Assembly: GCF_045037415.1 (NCBI RefSeq)
Contig: NZ_CP173438.1
DNA from: Escherichia coli
GTDB taxonomy: Bacteria; Pseudomonadota; Gammaproteobacteria; Enterobacterales; Enterobacteriaceae
Length of the DNA stretch: 64,000 nt
Direction: 5' to 3' (one strand)
The position numbers and the translations under genes were made by a program. This document shows, piece by piece, positions 46,643 through 52,434 of this stretch. Positions within the stretch are counted from its first letter, which is position 1; every line of letters starts with the position of its first letter. Under the pieces are notes generated by a model. That model was given only the letters and a program-made list of their open reading frames with translations, was not told the origin of the DNA and did no database searches.

Positions 46643-46857
46643 CTAAAGTTGGGAGCTTAAGAAATGCTTCATAATTCAGTAAGGCATTAGCATAATGGAA
46701 ATAAAAGTGCAGAGACCATCCCTATGGATGATTAATACTGTCTTTTTATTGCTTCCCATAAATAATCACCAGACCAATACGATCAAATTGATATTTGAAA
46801 TGTGTTCACTTGACTTTTGATACGTTATTTTATAATGGTTAACATATTTATAACAAC

Positions 46858-46880
46858 AACGGGCGTGTTATACGCCCGTT
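46858..46880. terminator. Hairpin downstream of the icd' fragment (original icd terminator)
   Basis: aacgggcgt-gttat-acgcccgtt, a 9-bp stem located 24 nt past the icd' stop codon on the minus strand. Confidence 0.5.
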
Positions 46881-46903
46881 ACCGTTTTTAACACATGCAG
46901 AAA

Positions 46904-47068
46904 TTACATATTCTTGATGATCGCGTCACCAAACTCTGAACATTTCAGCAGTTTAGCGCCTTCCATCAGACGTTCGAAGTCATAGGTTACGGTCTTCGCA
47001 TTGATTGCGCCTTCCATACCTTTAACAATCAGGTCTGCGGCTTCAGTCCAACCCATGTGGCGCAGCAG
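46904..47068 (-). pseudogene. icdC: Isocitrate dehydrogenase 3'-terminal fragment (icdC-type duplicate marking the prophage att site)
   Basis: The minus strand encodes [54 protein letters not shown], the Icd C-terminus, with no upstream icd sequence. Similarity stops abruptly at 47068, where AT-rich phage DNA begins. Confidence 0.9.
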
Positions 47069-47249
47069 TATATAAAAATTATGTATTCAACTCGCTGATA
47101 TTTAATCATAAATATTATTTTCTTGTCTTTGTATTAGCCAAAATCAACTTTATTCAACCGTTTGATTTCATTGACGTTCGTTTTTATTTTGGGGAAAGAT
47201 TTTCTCTACCATTTATATCAAAATTACAAGTCTACATTTTATTAACATC

Positions 47250-47405
47250 TCAATACATGTGTGGCCTTGCAAGCCATTGCGAGGCCTTATGTGTCTCAGT
47301 TTTGTCCCGCCTTGTATTACGACTTGCATAGCCAATGAAGATAAACGTGACGACAAACAAAGCAGCTGTCTTCTTTTCTTTCACACTTTCCCCACTCAGC
47401 AGCAT
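47250..47405 (-). CDS. Hypothetical 51-aa single-TM protein downstream of the 256-aa orphan
   Basis: Hand-translated: MLLSGESVKEKKTAALFVVTFIFIGYASRNTRRDKTETHKASQWLARPHMY*. SD-like agaagg lies 5-9 nt upstream. Same strand as the 256-aa ORF. Below the ORF-track length cut-off. Confidence 0.3.
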   Translation of the reverse strand: MLLSGESVKEKKTAALFVVTFIFIGYASRNTRRDKTETHKASQWLARPHMY

Positions 47406-47527
47406 GCATACCTTCTACTATAACTGTAGTGAATGTCTATTATGAGCGAACTGCGGACATCGTGGAGACAACATGCTGCTGGGTGCGGATATCCCATGGC
47501 ACGTCATATCGCTCGCCGTATTACTTG

Positions 47528-48298
47528 TTATTTTTTTGAAACGAGAAGTTGATACAATTCCTTCAGGGATAAGGCTAATAACTCATTCTTCCTGATGAGA
47601 TCTTTATCAGCGTCTATACCCTCTGCGCATGATTCATTTAAATAGTTCAGTGTTTCCTGATCATCATCCAAGCATTCATAGCTGCCTGAATAAAATTCAT
47701 CGCAACTTGCTTTGTTATTTTTGTCAATGTAACCAATGCATTGAATCACGCCTTTAACAACTTTAGCAGCAGAAAAAACAAAGTAACTGCAGTCATTTAT
47801 ATAGCGTTCAATATCAAAAATCATATAAAAATAGTGCATAGAGTGTTTTTCAATTTCAAACTCACTTGAAATCATAGCTATTTCACATTCAAGGTCTTTC
47901 AGACCATCTAACATTATGGAAAGTTTACATTGTTTTTCTTGCACAGTTTCATACTTAAATGACTCTCTCCCCTTTGCCCTGACATTTATTCTTTCTTCAA
48001 TTGCATAAATATAAGCAGGATATACACGCGACCACACTTGGTTTATTTTTAGGATTAACCGGCCTCTTTTCAGCCTTTCTTTTGTAGCTATAAATTCTGC
48101 ATATAGCGCAGCATCCTCTTCGCACCATACATCAACTTTTCGTTTATAACCCAACTTTAATTCTTTCCCTACGCATTCAGGAAACAAAGGATCAAAGTCC
48201 TTTAAGTATTCAAACTCACTTAGATAGAATCCTGTCTCATAACGATTAAATAATTTCCTAAACTCTTTCCCACTTAAGGTTTTCATTGTATCAATCAC
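47528..48298 (-). CDS. Hypothetical 256-aa protein, no family recognised (prophage cargo next to attR)
   Basis: Long uninterrupted ORF in very AT-rich DNA, where random ORFs of this length are unlikely. Start is GTG at 48298 or ATG at 48286. No recognisable catalytic motifs. Confidence 0.65.
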   Translation of the reverse strand: MIDTMKTLSGKEFRKLFNRYETGFYLSEFEYLKDFDPLFPECVGKELKLGYKRKVDVWCEEDAALYAEFIATKERLKRGRLILKINQVWSRVYPAYIYAIEERINVRAKGRESFKYETVQEKQCKLSIMLDGLKDLECEIAMISSEFEIEKHSMHYFYMIFDIERYINDCSYFVFSAAKVVKGVIQCIGYIDKNNKASCDEFYSGSYECLDDDQETLNYLNESCAEGIDADKDLIRKNELLALSLKELYQLLVSKK

Positions 48299-48889
48299 TC
48301 TGTTTTCATAAAAGCAAAGTCAACAAGATAAAACAATAAAAACTCTTACACAACCAGCTGATGTTTTTAAAATAGAGGATAATATAAGACAAGCATAACC
48401 TCGTTCACTTCAATGCTACTCCTATCGTTCTTTTGCGTCACAGAGCGCCTGCCGGACAACTGCATCATAGACCAAACGGAACTGCTTCCGTCGATTAATC
48501 AGATGGCAGCGCATAAACACGCTCAACAACCCGTTTGACTGCTTCAATTTTAAGCTCTTCGGAATAACGCTTACCGTGTAAGTCTCCCTGCAAAACGAGC
48601 TATCAACTTTTAAGGAGTCTCTGGCCCCCCTGCTTCCGCTCCTGGCACACAGCAGCCCTAGAGACAGTGGAGTAAAGTCATGGAGGCTCGGTGGGGGGAG
48701 GTGCAAATCCTCCCATACAAAAAATACGAAAATCAGTAACGGCTAGAAATCATTCAATACATGCACTCTCGAAATTGCATCAGCCAACCGCAAAACGTTA
48801 TTTCAAAGCCTACTAGCTGCCTTACTTTTTTCCTCAATAACGCGTCGCCAGCAGGAAACAACCTAATCCCTGTTTTGGGCCTCAAAGCT

Positions 48890-48908
48890 GCTAATGATAA
48901 TCATTTTC
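48890..48908 (+). promoter_or_regulatory. Fur box upstream of sitA
   Basis: GCTAATGATAATCATTTTC matches the consensus GATAATGATAATCATTATC at 17 of 19 positions. Confidence 0.8.
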
Positions 48909-48984: not shown

Positions 48985-49899
48985 ATGCACTCGATAAAAA
49001 AAGTAACCATGCTCTTGGGGGGGCTCGCACTCACCTGCTCGATCGCATTTCAGGCAAGTGCAACTGAAAAATTCAAGGTCATTACAACATTTACCATCAT
49101 CGCGGATATGGCCAAAAACGTGGCGGGAGATGCTGCAGAAGTCTCATCCATAACCAAGCCTGGTGCAGAAATTCATGAGTATCAGCCTACCCCTGGCGAT
49201 ATTAAACGTGCGCAGGGGGCACAACTGATTCTCGCCAATGGTATGAATCTGGAATTGTGGTTCCAACGCTTTTACCAGCATCTCAATGGGGTTCCAGAAG
49301 TAATTGTCTCTTCGGGTGTGACGCCTGTAGGGATCACCGAAGGACCCTATGAGGGCAAACCTAACCCCCATGCATGGATGTCGCCAGATAATGCTCTGAT
49401 TTACGTCGATAATATTCGTGATGCGTTGATAAAATACGATCCGGCAAATGCACAAACCTACCAACGCAATGCCGATACTTATAAAGCCAAGATTACCCAA
49501 ACCCTTGCCCCCCTGCGTAAGCAGATTACGGAACTCCCTGAGAATCAGCGATGGATGGTCACCAGTGAAGGGGCTTTTTCTTATCTCGCACGCGATTTGG
49601 GGCTAAAAGAGCTTTATCTGTGGCCGATTAATGCCGATCAACAAGGAACACCGCAGCAGGTACGTAAGGTTGTTGATATAGTTAAGAAAAATCATATCCC
49701 GGCAGTCTTTAGCGAGAGTACGATTTCCGATAAACCAGCGCGTCAGGTTGCGCGTGAAACCGGCGCACACTACGGCGGTGTGCTCTATGTCGATTCCCTG
49801 AGCACAGAAAACGGCCCGGTACCGACGTATATCGACCTTCTTAAGGTTACTACCAGTACGCTGGTACAGGGAATTAAAGCTGGGAAAAGGGAGAAATAA
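48985..49899 (+). CDS. sitA: Mn2+/Fe2+ ABC transporter periplasmic binding protein SitA
   Basis: 304 aa with a signal peptide. Cluster-9 (PsaA/YfeA-like) sequence with EIHEYQPTP and PHAWMSP. Confidence 0.92.
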
Positions 49900-50726
49900 T
49901 GATGCAATCTGCAGGCATTGTCGTTAATGATGTTACTGTCACCTGGCGTAACGGGCACACAGCACTGCGCGATGCATCCTTCACAGTACCAAGTGGATCT
50001 ATTGCCGCTCTGGTTGGGGTAAACGGTTCCGGAAAATCGACGTTGTTTAAAGCGATTATGGGATTTGTGCGTCTGACCAGCGGAAAGATATCTGTTCTGG
50101 GTATTCCCACGCGACAGGCGTTACAGAAAAACCTGGTTGCCTACGTCCCTCAGTCAGAAGATGTTGACTGGTCATTTCCTGTACTGGTGGAAGATGTGGT
50201 GATGATGGGCCGCTATGGGCATATGGGTATGTTGCGTATCGCCAAAAAGAGGGATCGTCAAATTGTCACCGATGCGCTGGAACGTGTCGATATGGTGAAT
50301 TTTCGCCATCGACAAATCGGCGAGCTTTCCGGTGGACAAAAGAAACGCGTCTTTCTGGCGAGAGCGATTGCACAGCAGGGTGATGTGATCCTGCTGGATG
50401 AACCTTTTACTGGCGTTGATGTGAAAACCGAAGCCAAAATCATCAGCCTGTTGAGGGAGTTACGCGCGGAAGGCAAAACGATGCTTGTCTCAACACACAA
50501 TCTCGGATCCGTCACGACATTTTGCGATTATACGGTCATGGTCAAAGGCACCGTCCTGGCAAGCGGGCCGACAGACACCACTTTTACAGCCGAGAACCTA
50601 GAGCTGGCTTTTAGCGGCGTACTGCGCCATGTCACACTTAACGGCTCGGAAGAAAGCATTATTACTGACGATGAACGCCCTTTTGTGGCTCATCGACCGT
50701 CAGCGGTGCAGAGGGAAGAAAGATGA
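49899..50726 (+). CDS. sitB: Mn2+/Fe2+ ABC transporter ATPase SitB
   Basis: Walker [10 protein letters not shown], signature LSGGQKKR, Walker B ILLDEP. The start overlaps the sitA stop. Confidence 0.92.
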
Positions 50727-51580
50727 ACGTGCTACTGGAACCCTTCAGCTATGAATATATGCTCAATGCGATGTGGGTCTCGGCGATGGTCGGCGGTCTC
50801 TGCGCTTTCCTGTCATGCTATCTGATGCTAAAAGGCTGGTCGCTGATTGGCGATGCGTTGTCGCACTCTATTGTCCCGGGTGTTGCGGGGGCATATATGC
50901 TGGGGCTTCCGTTTTCTCTGGGAGCCTTCTTTTCCGGCGGACTGGCTGCGGGCAGCATGCTGTTTCTTAACCAACGCACCCGCTTAAAAGAAGATGCCAT
51001 CATCGGTCTGATCTTCTCGTCCTTTTTTGGCCTGGGGCTGTTTATGGTGTCATTGAACCCGACATCTGTGAACATTCAGACCATCGTCCTGGGCAATATT
51101 CTGGCAATCGATCCGGCGGATATCCTGCAACTCACTATCATTGGCATTCTCTCGATCATCGTGCTTTTTTTCAAATGGAAAGATCTTATGGTGACCTTTT
51201 TCGACGAGAATCACGCCCGTGCTATTGGATTGCATCCGGGCAGATTAAAACTCCTCTTCTTCACCCTGCTGTCGGTTTCGACCGTTGCGGCGCTGCAAAC
51301 GGTTGGTGCCTTTCTGGTGATCTGTCTGGTGGTGACTCCCGGTGCAACAGCATGGTTGTTAACCGATCGTTTTCCCCGCCTGCTCATGATTGCTGTAACT
51401 ATTGGCAGTGTAACCAGTTTCCTCGGCGCGTGGGTCAGTTACTTTCTGGACGGCGCGACAGGTGGAATCATCGTGGTGGCGCAGACACTGCTGTTTCTTT
51501 TAGCATTTGTCTTTGCGCCCACCCATGGGCTTTTGGCAAATCGTCGGCGTGCGCATAAGGCGCTGGAGGATCGCTCATGA
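50723..51580 (+). CDS. sitC: Mn2+/Fe2+ ABC transporter permease SitC
   Basis: 285-aa polytopic ABC-3 family permease. Overlapping start/stop (ATGA). Confidence 0.92.
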
Positions 51581-52434
51581 TGGCATTATTACTGGAGCCA
51601 CTGCAGTTCACCTTTATGAGTCACGCACTGCTGATTTCACTGGTAGTTTCCATACCCTGTGCGCTGCTGTCGGTCTTTCTGGTCCTGAAAGGTTGGGCAC
51701 TGATGGGTGACGCGATGAGTCATGCGGTTTTTCCTGGCATCGTGCTTGCCTGGATTCTGGGGTTACCTTTGGCTACAGGGGCATTCGTCGCCGGAGTATT
51801 CTGTGCGGTGGCGACGGGATACCTGAAAGACAACAGCCGAATCAAGCAAGATACAGTGATGGGGATTGTTTTTTCTGGCATGTTTGCCGCAGGTCTGATC
51901 TTGTATATTGCAGTCAAACCAGACGTACATCTTGACCATATTCTTTTCGGCGACATGCTCGGGATAACCATCGGCGATATAATCCAGACGATGATTATTG
52001 CCGGGCTGGTTACACTTGTTATTAGCGTAAAATGGCGGGATTTTTTGCTGTTCAGCTTTGATTATCAACAGGCGCAGGTAAGCGGTTTGCATACGAGATG
52101 GCTGCATTATGGGCTGCTGTGCATGGTCTCTCTGACCATTGTGGCGACGCTGAAAGCGGTAGGTATCATTCTCTCCATTTCTCTGCTCATTGCGCCTGGC
52201 GCCATTGCGGTACTCCTGACACAACGCTTTCATATTGCGCTCCTACTGGCGACTGGCATATCGGTAATAGTGTCAATGACTGGTGTCTGGTTGTCCTTTT
52301 TTATCGACAGCGCACCAGCTCCGACGATTGTCGTCTTATTCGCGGTTTTGTTCATCATGACGTTTGCCGTTACCAGCATCAACGCACGCAAAAAGGGAAA
52401 CTCCCATACACAGGATCTGTTATCACCCAATTAG
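51577..52434 (+). CDS. sitD: Mn2+/Fe2+ ABC transporter permease SitD
   Basis: 285-aa paralogue of SitC. Overlapping start/stop. Confidence 0.92.
   Translation: MMALLLEPLQFTFMSHALLISLVVSIPCALLSVFLVLKGWALMGDAMSHAVFPGIVLAWILGLPLATGAFVAGVFCAVATGYLKDNSRIKQDTVMGIVFSGMFAAGLILYIAVKPDVHLDHILFGDMLGITIGDIIQTMIIAGLVTLVISVKWRDFLLFSFDYQQAQVSGLHTRWLHYGLLCMVSLTIVATLKAVGIILSISLLIAPGAIAVLLTQRFHIALLLATGISVIVSMTGVWLSFFIDSAPAPTIVVLFAVLFIMTFAVTSINARKKGNSHTQDLLSPN

Follow-up and report, generated by a model that had tools for sequence, protein, structure and literature searches.

Gene 31 of phage-21-type prophages is a conserved, mobile single-gene moron and a candidate for phage exclusion or regulation

Prophages integrated in the icd gene of Escherichia coli carry variable cargo next to their right attachment site. 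We examined one such cargo gene in a 64,000-nucleotide stretch of E. coli DNA (NCBI RefSeq assembly GCF_045037415.1, contig NZ_CP173438.1; hereafter "the window"), where an open reading frame (ORF) at 47528..48298 on the minus strand corresponds to gene 31 of phage 21. Our sequence comparisons identify this gene as a single-gene moron that moves as a unit of ~950 bp among prophages, conjugative elements, plasmids, and islands of Enterobacterales. It is a conserved gene and a reasonable candidate for phage exclusion or regulation. The account that we favor, with a probability of roughly 0.4, is that gene 31 is an independently transcribed, mobile moron whose product would bind nucleic acid and act in exclusion or in regulation. 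The length of the ORF, its dN/dS (the ratio of nonsynonymous to synonymous substitution rates), its spread, its expression, the fold model, the single-gene unit, the slot that it occupies, and its defense neighbors in other genera all lend this account tentative support. Databases have long listed the gene as "hypothetical"; we contribute a fold assignment, its status as an orphan, its behavior as a mobile unit, an estimate of selection, and its expression in published data.

The frame is open from a GTG, which gives a protein of 256 amino acids, and the coding sequence (CDS) is annotated by the Prokaryotic Genome Annotation Pipeline (PGAP) and RefSeq as a hypothetical protein (WP_000567449.1). 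Yet the ATG at 48286, which gives 252 amino acids, is the more likely start, since all homologs begin with MKTLSGKEF, the profile of PHROG 20520 starts at residue 5 of the 256-residue version, and the phage 21 and NC101 annotations use this ATG. The four residues ahead of MKTLSGKEF vary from locus to locus, and the corresponding nucleotides (48287..48298) are probably part of the 5' untranslated region. PHROG 20520, a phage protein family without an assigned function, matches over its full length (E = 1.4e-177; residues 5 to 256 against profile positions 1 to 252 of 252).

The original prediction, made from the DNA sequence alone, took an uninterrupted frame in such AT-rich DNA as a sign of real coding, and our simulations agree. 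The G+C content of the ORF is 34.1%, and that of its flanks is 44 to 50%. Under a first-order Markov model of the 1928-bp interval between icdC (the 3' fragment of icd) and sitA, the longest open run averaged 99 codons and reached at most 241, against an observed 256 to 263; thus, none of the 5000 composition-matched simulations attained 256 codons. Pairwise dN/dS values (Nei-Gojobori, seven loci) range from 0.16 to 0.41, with a median of 0.22, and are usually lower across the first 58 codons, which cover the N-terminal domain. The 252-codon gene is therefore real and under purifying selection, and the median of ~0.22 rules out a decaying or spurious ORF. The original prediction had also allowed for an ORF confined to this strain and evolving neutrally, or for a homolog of a structural or housekeeping phage protein. 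Instead, conservation extends past this strain and into other genera with dN/dS well below 1, and no structural or housekeeping phage protein was found to be homologous.

Gene 31 is present at 99% identity or more in 759 of 5426 complete E. coli genomes (14%), including strains labeled ST131, APEC O18, ATCC 25922, and NC101, and its frame is intact in essentially all of them. Besides phage 21, 20 further sequenced phages carry it at 99.6% identity, and the exact 252-residue sequence occurs on at least 1000 contigs. Outside E. coli, a word-index search gathered 21 further clusters with 63 to 88% identity, from Citrobacter, Klebsiella, Mangrovibacter, and a metagenome-assembled genome of the Aeromonadaceae; additional members come from Intestinirhabdus and from a Leclercia plasmid. 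Only 3 of 185,579 species-representative genomes and only 6 of 72,556 plasmid records contain it, and no relative below 63% identity was found. Because HMMER, run exhaustively with a profile against 1.84 billion representative proteins, returned one full-length cluster and fragments but no distant relative, the family is narrow and an orphan by sequence. The earlier description of the gene as an orphan thus stands at the level of the family; if it was meant as strain specific, it does not, given phage 21 and 14% of complete E. coli genomes. Literature searches on the protein accession, the CFT073 locus tags, phage 21 morons, and lambdoid defense hotspots retrieved no functional study.

In the window, the min-ymg-bluF-bluR-ycgX region is followed by a lambdoid prophage integrated in icd. 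The arrangement is the same as that of the phage 21 genome (OL657228; PMC9119081), in which the side tail fiber gene and two small genes precede sitDCBA, which lies on the opposite strand; beyond it come an IS3-like remnant, gene 31 (annotated as a "hypothetical protein," CPT_21_31), a 51-residue "putative membrane protein," the 3' copy of icd, attP, and int. The prophage is likewise the counterpart of PAI-CFT073-icdA (c1518-c1601), of which gene 31 is the last gene, and of the NC-SV prophage in strain NC101. These correspondences assign the gene to a phage-21-type prophage in icd. It is transcribed, as had been noticed from the sequence, opposite to sitABCD (48985-52434, plus strand) and toward the att junction, where the icd fragment lies (46904-47071).

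The slot that gene 31 occupies is filled differently in related prophages. The original prediction equated it with the position of mcrA in the K-12 prophage e14, and K-12 bears this out: e14 carries pinE and mcrA there, with mcrA directly before icdC and transcribed toward it. An icd-integrated prophage of strain EC38 has a McrBC-like pair, and an O157:H7 strain has an acetyltransferase, a helix-turn-helix (HTH) protein, ompT, and a hydrolase. As other icd prophages carry different cargo, the variable region expected between the tail fibers and attR is indeed found, and the slot between the tail-fiber genes and icdC emerges from these comparisons as a true cargo hotspot.

How far the shared DNA extends can be judged from BLASTN comparisons among 11 loci, in which the left boundary of homology falls at -110 to -114 in most pairs and the right one ~65 to 85 nt past the stop codon (about +840; Table 1). 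In the window and in two Citrobacter loci (L002 and L021), it reaches farther upstream, to about -362 to -378, because a remnant of an IS3-family orfA lies in between; the phage 21 annotators called this IS3 similarity unconvincing. A TTGTGT-17-TATCTT arrangement in the conserved 5' region is a plausible candidate promoter; a consensus promoter scan that admitted only 16- to 18-nt spacers reported no minus-strand promoter in this region, this site included. We rejected a CII-dependent promoter, for which the phage 21 annotators had marked a TTGT-N6-TTGT motif, as the first repeat is not kept in other loci. Downstream, no clear intrinsic terminator of gene 31 was found, a terminator or structured RNA in the 3' flank was discarded (z = -0.23, no significant structure), and an Rfam scan of the window gave no match in the gene 31 interval. 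Transcription of gene 31 on its own is part of the account that we favor.

The unit is bounded by palindromic repeats of ~78 nt (TCCGCTyyTCGCTCAsAGCGGA, ~20 nt, and an inverted TCCGCTssGTGCCAGrAGCGGA, often followed by GTTG). The same repeats lie between successive single genes in L002 (Citrobacter telavivensis), L003 (Klebsiella variicola), and L007, and between unrelated genes 3 to 9 kb from the cassette in L003 and L004. They are rare in E. coli (37 of 5426 genomes, a single copy each) and occur also on plasmids of Klebsiella, Pantoea, and Serratia. Most simply, they would represent a family resembling repetitive extragenic palindromes (REP/REPIN-like) that points to an origin of the unit outside E. 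coli; they may also be recombination sites for a nearby tyrosine recombinase of 200 residues. Such recombinases (Phage_integrase; the size of FimB and FimE) form a pair with ~80% identity, in L002 (5379-5987) and L003 (9229-9837), and lie near the unit in 2 of 10 loci. In L003 the recombinase gene is immediately upstream of the gene 31 unit; in L002 a DUF1963 gene, a T5orf172 gene, and a gene for 389 residues, separated by repeats, lie between the two. An integron cassette was considered and rejected: the consensus of the repeats differs, with only sporadic fits to RYYYAAC/GTTRRRY, and no gene of the size of intI was seen.

Outside E. coli, the unit is found in varied surroundings, and no neighbor gene is conserved across loci. 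It occurs as cargo between transfer modules of integrative and conjugative elements (L007 and L022), in islets beside the 200-residue tyrosine recombinase (L002 and L003), and at the variable end of a CP4-like island, next to an HNH protein (L021). In L011 it lies directly beside a type I restriction-modification (R-M) system and an Imm50 gene; in L002 it lies next to a T5orf172/PDC-S57-like gene, and in L003 a Lamassu system is ~7 kb away. Overall, 6 of the 10 non-E. coli contexts have a defense gene within 10 kb (PD-Lambda-4 and type I R-M, each adjacent to the unit, Lamassu, T5orf172/PDC-S57-like, HNH, or Mrr). In Intestinirhabdus alba (L014; 3574-7941), PD-Lambda-4_A is full length (2498 bits), whereas the PD-Lambda-4_B after it matches only to residue 141 of 303, with gene 31 directly after. 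The break coincides with the start of homology of the unit (-114), and the gene 31 unit appears to have replaced the 3' half of the defense gene. These neighborhoods do no more than suggest a defense role for gene 31.

Expression could be read from published RNA-seq data that compare NC101 with an NC-SV deletion strain 10 min after infection with phage RSB03, in which values are fold changes against the deletion strain and not absolute abundances (Pershing et al., PLoS Pathog 2026; PMC12803456, S1 Data). Gene 31 (GQ584_RS07115, which follows sitA, RS07110) has a log fold change (logFC) of -9.78 in the deletion strain relative to the wild type, the sixth rank among all prophage genes. The HTH regulator RS06850 has -9.76, and sitABCD has -5.6 to -7.8. 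In this one data set, 10 min after infection, transcript levels of gene 31 and of the immunity region are roughly equal. Expression in a lysogen, which the original prediction had proposed to look for, is therefore strong in NC101. In a second NC101 assembly, the sole CDS between sitA and the icd fragment encodes a 252-residue protein that is 100% identical to that of the window.

The same study ascribes the effect of NC-SV on plaque size and adsorption to the small RNA svsR: the deletion altered plaque size, but not plaque counts, for two of four phages, and svsR alone restored the phenotype (PMC12803456). We considered svsR as an occupant of the gene 31 interval and rejected it, as svsR is at the 3' end of cI, elsewhere in the prophage. 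The largest losses on deletion of NC-SV are those of two hypothetical genes beside the HTH regulator, GQ584_RS06840 and RS06845 (logFC, -11.7 and -11.1), and large losses are also listed for a DUF4145 gene and a TonB-family gene (PMC12803456). Like gene 31, these four genes are highly transcribed and have no role assigned there.

The product of gene 31 is a cytoplasmic protein of 252 residues. Searches of Pfam and NCBIfam with this protein and all 20 family members gave no family match, and sequence-profile searches of PDB gave none either. PADLOC-DB v2 returned a single, negligible match, of residues 5 to 29 of the protein to the 70-position candidate profile PDC-M13C (E = 0.0034, 15.6 bits). 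Pfam detects no HNH or other nuclease family in the window protein; a weak Tox-HNH-HHH match (E = 0.13) appears in only one of the 20 members. An AlphaFold2 (AF2) model built from the 20-sequence alignment has a mean predicted local distance difference test (pLDDT) score of 92.5 and a predicted template modeling (pTM) score of 0.84. Residues 1 to 55 are predicted to adopt a winged-helix fold of the MerR/excisionase type, as their strand-helix-helix-strand-strand topology superposes on solved members of this group. The remainder is modeled as four long helices. The modeling and fold search proposed with the original prediction thus gave a confident model with an N-terminal winged helix; searches with the whole model retrieved only generic helical bundles. 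Likewise, the earlier statement that no family could be recognized stands for Pfam and NCBIfam, but residues 1 to 55 can now be given a predicted fold.

Within the winged helix, the wing and helix 1 are basic, as is the long helix of residues 59 to 112 (isoelectric point [pI], 10.2). Residues C166, C183, C195, and LDDD (206 to 209) are invariant, and C205 is nearly so; judging from the order of the helices, C183, C195, C205, and the acidic residues would lie at the end of the bundle distal to the winged helix. The protein had been described as helical and cysteine containing, with an acidic C-terminal third, which agrees with the helical model, nine cysteines in total, and a pI of 4.3 for residues 191 to 252. 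By inspection, HEPN, HD, ferritin-like, and PhoU-like motifs were rejected, with no conserved Rx4-6H, H..HD..D, or ExxH among the invariant residues. A pore-forming or membrane protein was rejected too, as every helix contains charged residues.

Together, these features suggest how gene 31 might work. In the model, the winged helix runs directly into the long basic helix, which packs in the four-helix bundle; nucleic acid would be bound via the wing and helix 1 of the winged helix together with the long helix, all three of them basic. The bundle could oligomerize or sense a signal, such as a protein, a metal, or a redox state, and transcription or replication of the target DNA would be blocked or reprogrammed. 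As the target, we rank incoming or competing mobile DNA first, which would amount to exclusion, and a set of host promoters second, which would amount to lysogenic conversion. Since the protein has no catalytic domain, its action would depend on binding, not on cleavage.

Several observations weigh against this proposal. No HTH family matches by sequence profile: Pfam MerR, HTH_17, and Phage_AlpA give nothing at an E value of 10 or less in any of the 20 members, and hhalign against E. coli AlpA gave a probability of 0.2%. The helix in the recognition position (residues 22 to 31, SEFEYLKDFD) is acidic and the pI of the whole protein is 5.3; therefore, the fold could serve protein binding instead. 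By inspection, we saw neither a dyad operator nor a MerR-style promoter with a long spacer (19 to 20 bp) in the conserved 5' region. The neighborhood signal is weak because defense genes are common in any cargo region of a mobile element. The expression values come from infected cells and are fold changes against a deletion strain. The sole published phage-protection phenotype of this prophage type is reproduced by svsR alone, and no target, partner, or phenotype of gene 31 is on record.

A related possibility is that gene 31 encodes a stand-alone antiphage protein of the abortive-infection or sensor type, whose bundle, on detecting a phage protein or DNA, would trigger cell arrest or a block to phage replication. 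The occupants of the slot in e14 and EC38, the adjoining PD-Lambda-4 and type I R-M systems and the nearby Lamassu, T5orf172, HNH, and Mrr genes elsewhere, the high expression in the lysogen data set, and the many kinds of mobile element that carry the gene are all in line with this possibility. Still, the protein has no nuclease, NTPase, TIR, Sir2, pore, or transmembrane element, its PADLOC match reaches only 15.6 bits, fold searches with the whole model give generic bundles, and the NC-SV phenotype, a change in plaque size for two of four phages, is restored by svsR alone (PMC12803456). We regard this alternative as unlikely, if worth keeping in mind. A bolder form of the exclusion model, which we consider improbable, would make gene 31 the founder of a new family of single-protein exclusion or defense factors without an enzymatic domain. 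Here, a winged helix and a bundle tipped with cysteines and acidic residues would recognize and silence invading DNA, and the ~950-bp unit, bounded by the palindromic repeats, would spread among phages, integrative and conjugative elements, plasmids, and islands; the repeats would possibly be recombination sites for the 200-residue tyrosine recombinase.

Gene 31 might instead assist its carrier element against host immunity or silencing, as an antidefense or establishment factor that binds, for example, a host defense or nucleoid protein. Its position beside transfer genes on conjugative elements (L007 and L022), its presence on a Leclercia plasmid, and the truncation of PD-Lambda-4_B by the left boundary of the unit would fit such a role. 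However, this truncation is one case, Pfam and PHROGs show no similarity to antirestriction or antidefense families, and transcription at the level of the immunity region in an established lysogen, here sampled 10 min after infection, would be unusual for an early gene. We think this role rather improbable.

A third alternative links gene 31 to its neighbors in phage 21 and in the window, where it is divergent from sitA: the protein could sense metal or redox state and regulate the manganese/iron transporter encoded by the adjacent sitABCD genes. Its MerR-like layout, a winged HTH followed by a long helix, and its invariant cysteines would suit this function. Yet the contexts in other genera largely exclude it, since sit genes are present in none of the 10 non-E. 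coli contexts. Moreover, the IS3 remnant and ~690 bp separate the gene from sitA, and sit is controlled by the host regulators Fur and MntR. The sitABCD genes are also common on ColV-type plasmids, whereas gene 31 is in only the six plasmid records mentioned above, which would leave the two unlinked there. A sit regulator is thus very unlikely. Last, a decaying or selfish passenger without function for host or phage, which the lack of a recorded phenotype and the insertion sequence (IS) insertions in or near the gene in some strains might suggest, is scarcely credible and is largely excluded by the dN/dS of ~0.22 across genera, besides the intact frames, the strong transcription, and the confident compact fold predicted from a shallow alignment.

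Among characterized proteins, the AlpA/Xis/RdfS excisionases and the MerR winged helices (PDB 8c3t, 8dgl, and 4j2n) share with gene 31 only the fold of the N-terminal domain. There is no sequence-profile similarity, and the recognition helix of gene 31 is acidic. Excisionases are stand-alone proteins of 55 to 80 residues, whereas gene 31 has an added bundle of 200 residues. In MerR proteins, the winged helix is accompanied by a second wing and by a dimer helix that forms an antiparallel coiled coil, whereas the predicted likeness of gene 31 covers residues 1 to 55, and no MerR-type promoter was seen in its 5' region. Deinococcus DdrC, Bacillus RacA, and pSK1 Par resemble gene 31 in combining a winged helix with a helical bundle or coiled coil, but in architecture only: they are not among the top 60 whole-model matches, they have no sequence relation to gene 31, and their roles in DNA repair, chromosome anchoring, and plasmid partition have no evident tie to a prophage moron.

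The McrA protein of e14 and the McrBC-like pair of EC38 are encoded in the same position and orientation, as the last cargo before icdC/attR. In contrast, gene 31 has no HNH or nuclease motif and no sequence or fold similarity to them, and its model is all helical past residue 55. With the classical lambdoid morons (lambda lom, bor, and rexAB; "more DNA" units in the sense of Hendrix), gene 31 shares a deviant composition (34% G+C), a conserved 5' region of its own, high transcription in the lysogen, and a nonessential site between the tail fiber genes and att. Unlike most of them, its unit is also found in integrative and conjugative elements, plasmids, and islands of other genera. Gene 31 therefore resembles a moron as usually defined in its own 5' region, its expression, and its composition, but not in having a terminator.

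Roughly one in seven complete E. coli genomes contains the prophage that carries gene 31, and phage 21 is one of the founding phages of molecular genetics. Yet gene 31, which is among the most highly transcribed genes of its prophage in one data set, has no name, family, or phenotype. If it excludes phages or mobile DNA, or if it reprograms host transcription, it would represent a new mechanism based on binding, with relevance to phage therapy against extraintestinal pathogenic E. coli (ExPEC). If it has no detectable effect, it would be one more conserved moron without an assigned role. So far, nothing about it is mechanistically surprising; epidemiologically, it is widespread.

Table 1. Coordinates of gene 31, the features around it in the window, and repeats at other loci
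Feature	Sequence	Position	Strand	Remarks
252-residue CDS, stop included	Window	47528..48286	-	Phage 21 gene 31 (CPT_21_31) = NC101 I0P59_RS10370 / GQ584_RS07115 = PHROG 20520
Four additional in-frame codons from GTG	Window	48287..48298	-	Upstream of the likely ATG; used by some PGAP annotations
Predicted MerR/excisionase (AlpA, Xis)-type winged helix, residues 1-55	Window	48122..48286	-	Strand-helix-helix-strand-strand; basic wing K41 K44 K48 R49 K50
Four long helices, residues 56-252 (predicted)	Window	47531..48121	-	56-110, 115-147, 153-189, 206-251; AF2
Conserved 5' region, ~112 nt	Window	48287..48398	-	Travels with the gene; many invariant positions
Candidate sigma-70 promoter	Window	TTGTGT 48353-48348, 17 nt, TATCTT 48330-48325	-	Read by eye
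Conserved 3' flank, ~85 nt	Window	47443..47527	-	Travels with the gene; ends in half repeat TCCGCAGTTCGCTCA at 47457-47443
IS3-family orfA remnant	Window	48399..48634	-	Frame reading GKRYSEELKIEAVKRVVER; shared with Citrobacter L002, L021
Palindromic repeat unit ending GTGCCAGGAGCGGA	Window	48635..48656	-	Outer left boundary of the unit common to L002, L021
icd 3' fragment (icdC)	Window	46904..47071	-	Chromosomal side of the prophage right junction; phage 21 attP/icd annotation
51-residue ORF, one short hydrophobic stretch	Window	47250..47405	-	Outside the conserved unit; hairpin 47263-47286 within
Repeats	L002	6838-6910, 8062-8098, 9580-9657, 10826-10905		
Repeats	L003	1677-1710, 2872-2947, 8548-8627, 9857-9882, 10814-10892, 13765-13844		
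Repeats	L007	8350-8423, 9807-9882, 10978-11053		
Repeat	L004	19742-19819		
Repeats	L020	2840-2870, 3802-3877		

The original prediction had pointed to a possible transmembrane ORF of 51 residues on the same strand after gene 31 and, with it, to a possible two-gene function. The ORF is present; the phage 21 annotation calls its product a putative membrane protein, and PGAP leaves it out. As a conserved partner it fails: it lies outside the shared DNA and is absent 3' of gene 31 in other genera. Other pairings were rejected as well, since neither the upstream genes (389 residues in L002, 381 residues in L007) nor the downstream ones (L004, L009) are related to each other. With the 51-residue ORF and every other neighbor differing between genera, the idea of a two-gene function has to be abandoned.

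The segment that holds the small ORF has a distribution of its own. Positions 47250 to 47458 recur with 82 to 89% identity at the end of CP4-like islands (L023, 4001-4198), downstream of toxin-antitoxin genes of the ykfI/yafW type. The ORF in L023 stays open, with 50 residues and an in-frame 3-nt indel, despite a divergence of 11 to 18%, and a core of 60 nt (47249-47308) matches K-12-derived strains too. The hairpin at 47263-47286 is conserved in this segment. No Rfam family matches the segment, which might encode a small membrane peptide or act as a terminator or RNA element.

Some minor differences concern the surroundings of the prophage junction. The interval equivalent to 47100-48900 contains insertions of IS1, IS903B, and ISEc52 in several other E. 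coli strains, and in at least one case, strain ZJ3920, an IS1B insertion splits the 252-codon gene. The sole Rfam match at the gathering threshold in the window is the small RNA C0299 (31149-31227, minus strand; 111.9 bits), which is unrelated to gene 31. According to the ORF list and the annotations of the B2 strains 4/1-1 and NC101, iraM and ymgK are absent between the icd fragment and ymgL/ycgX (46643-46903); both are present in K-12 (L024, 6579-7703) and in O157:H7.

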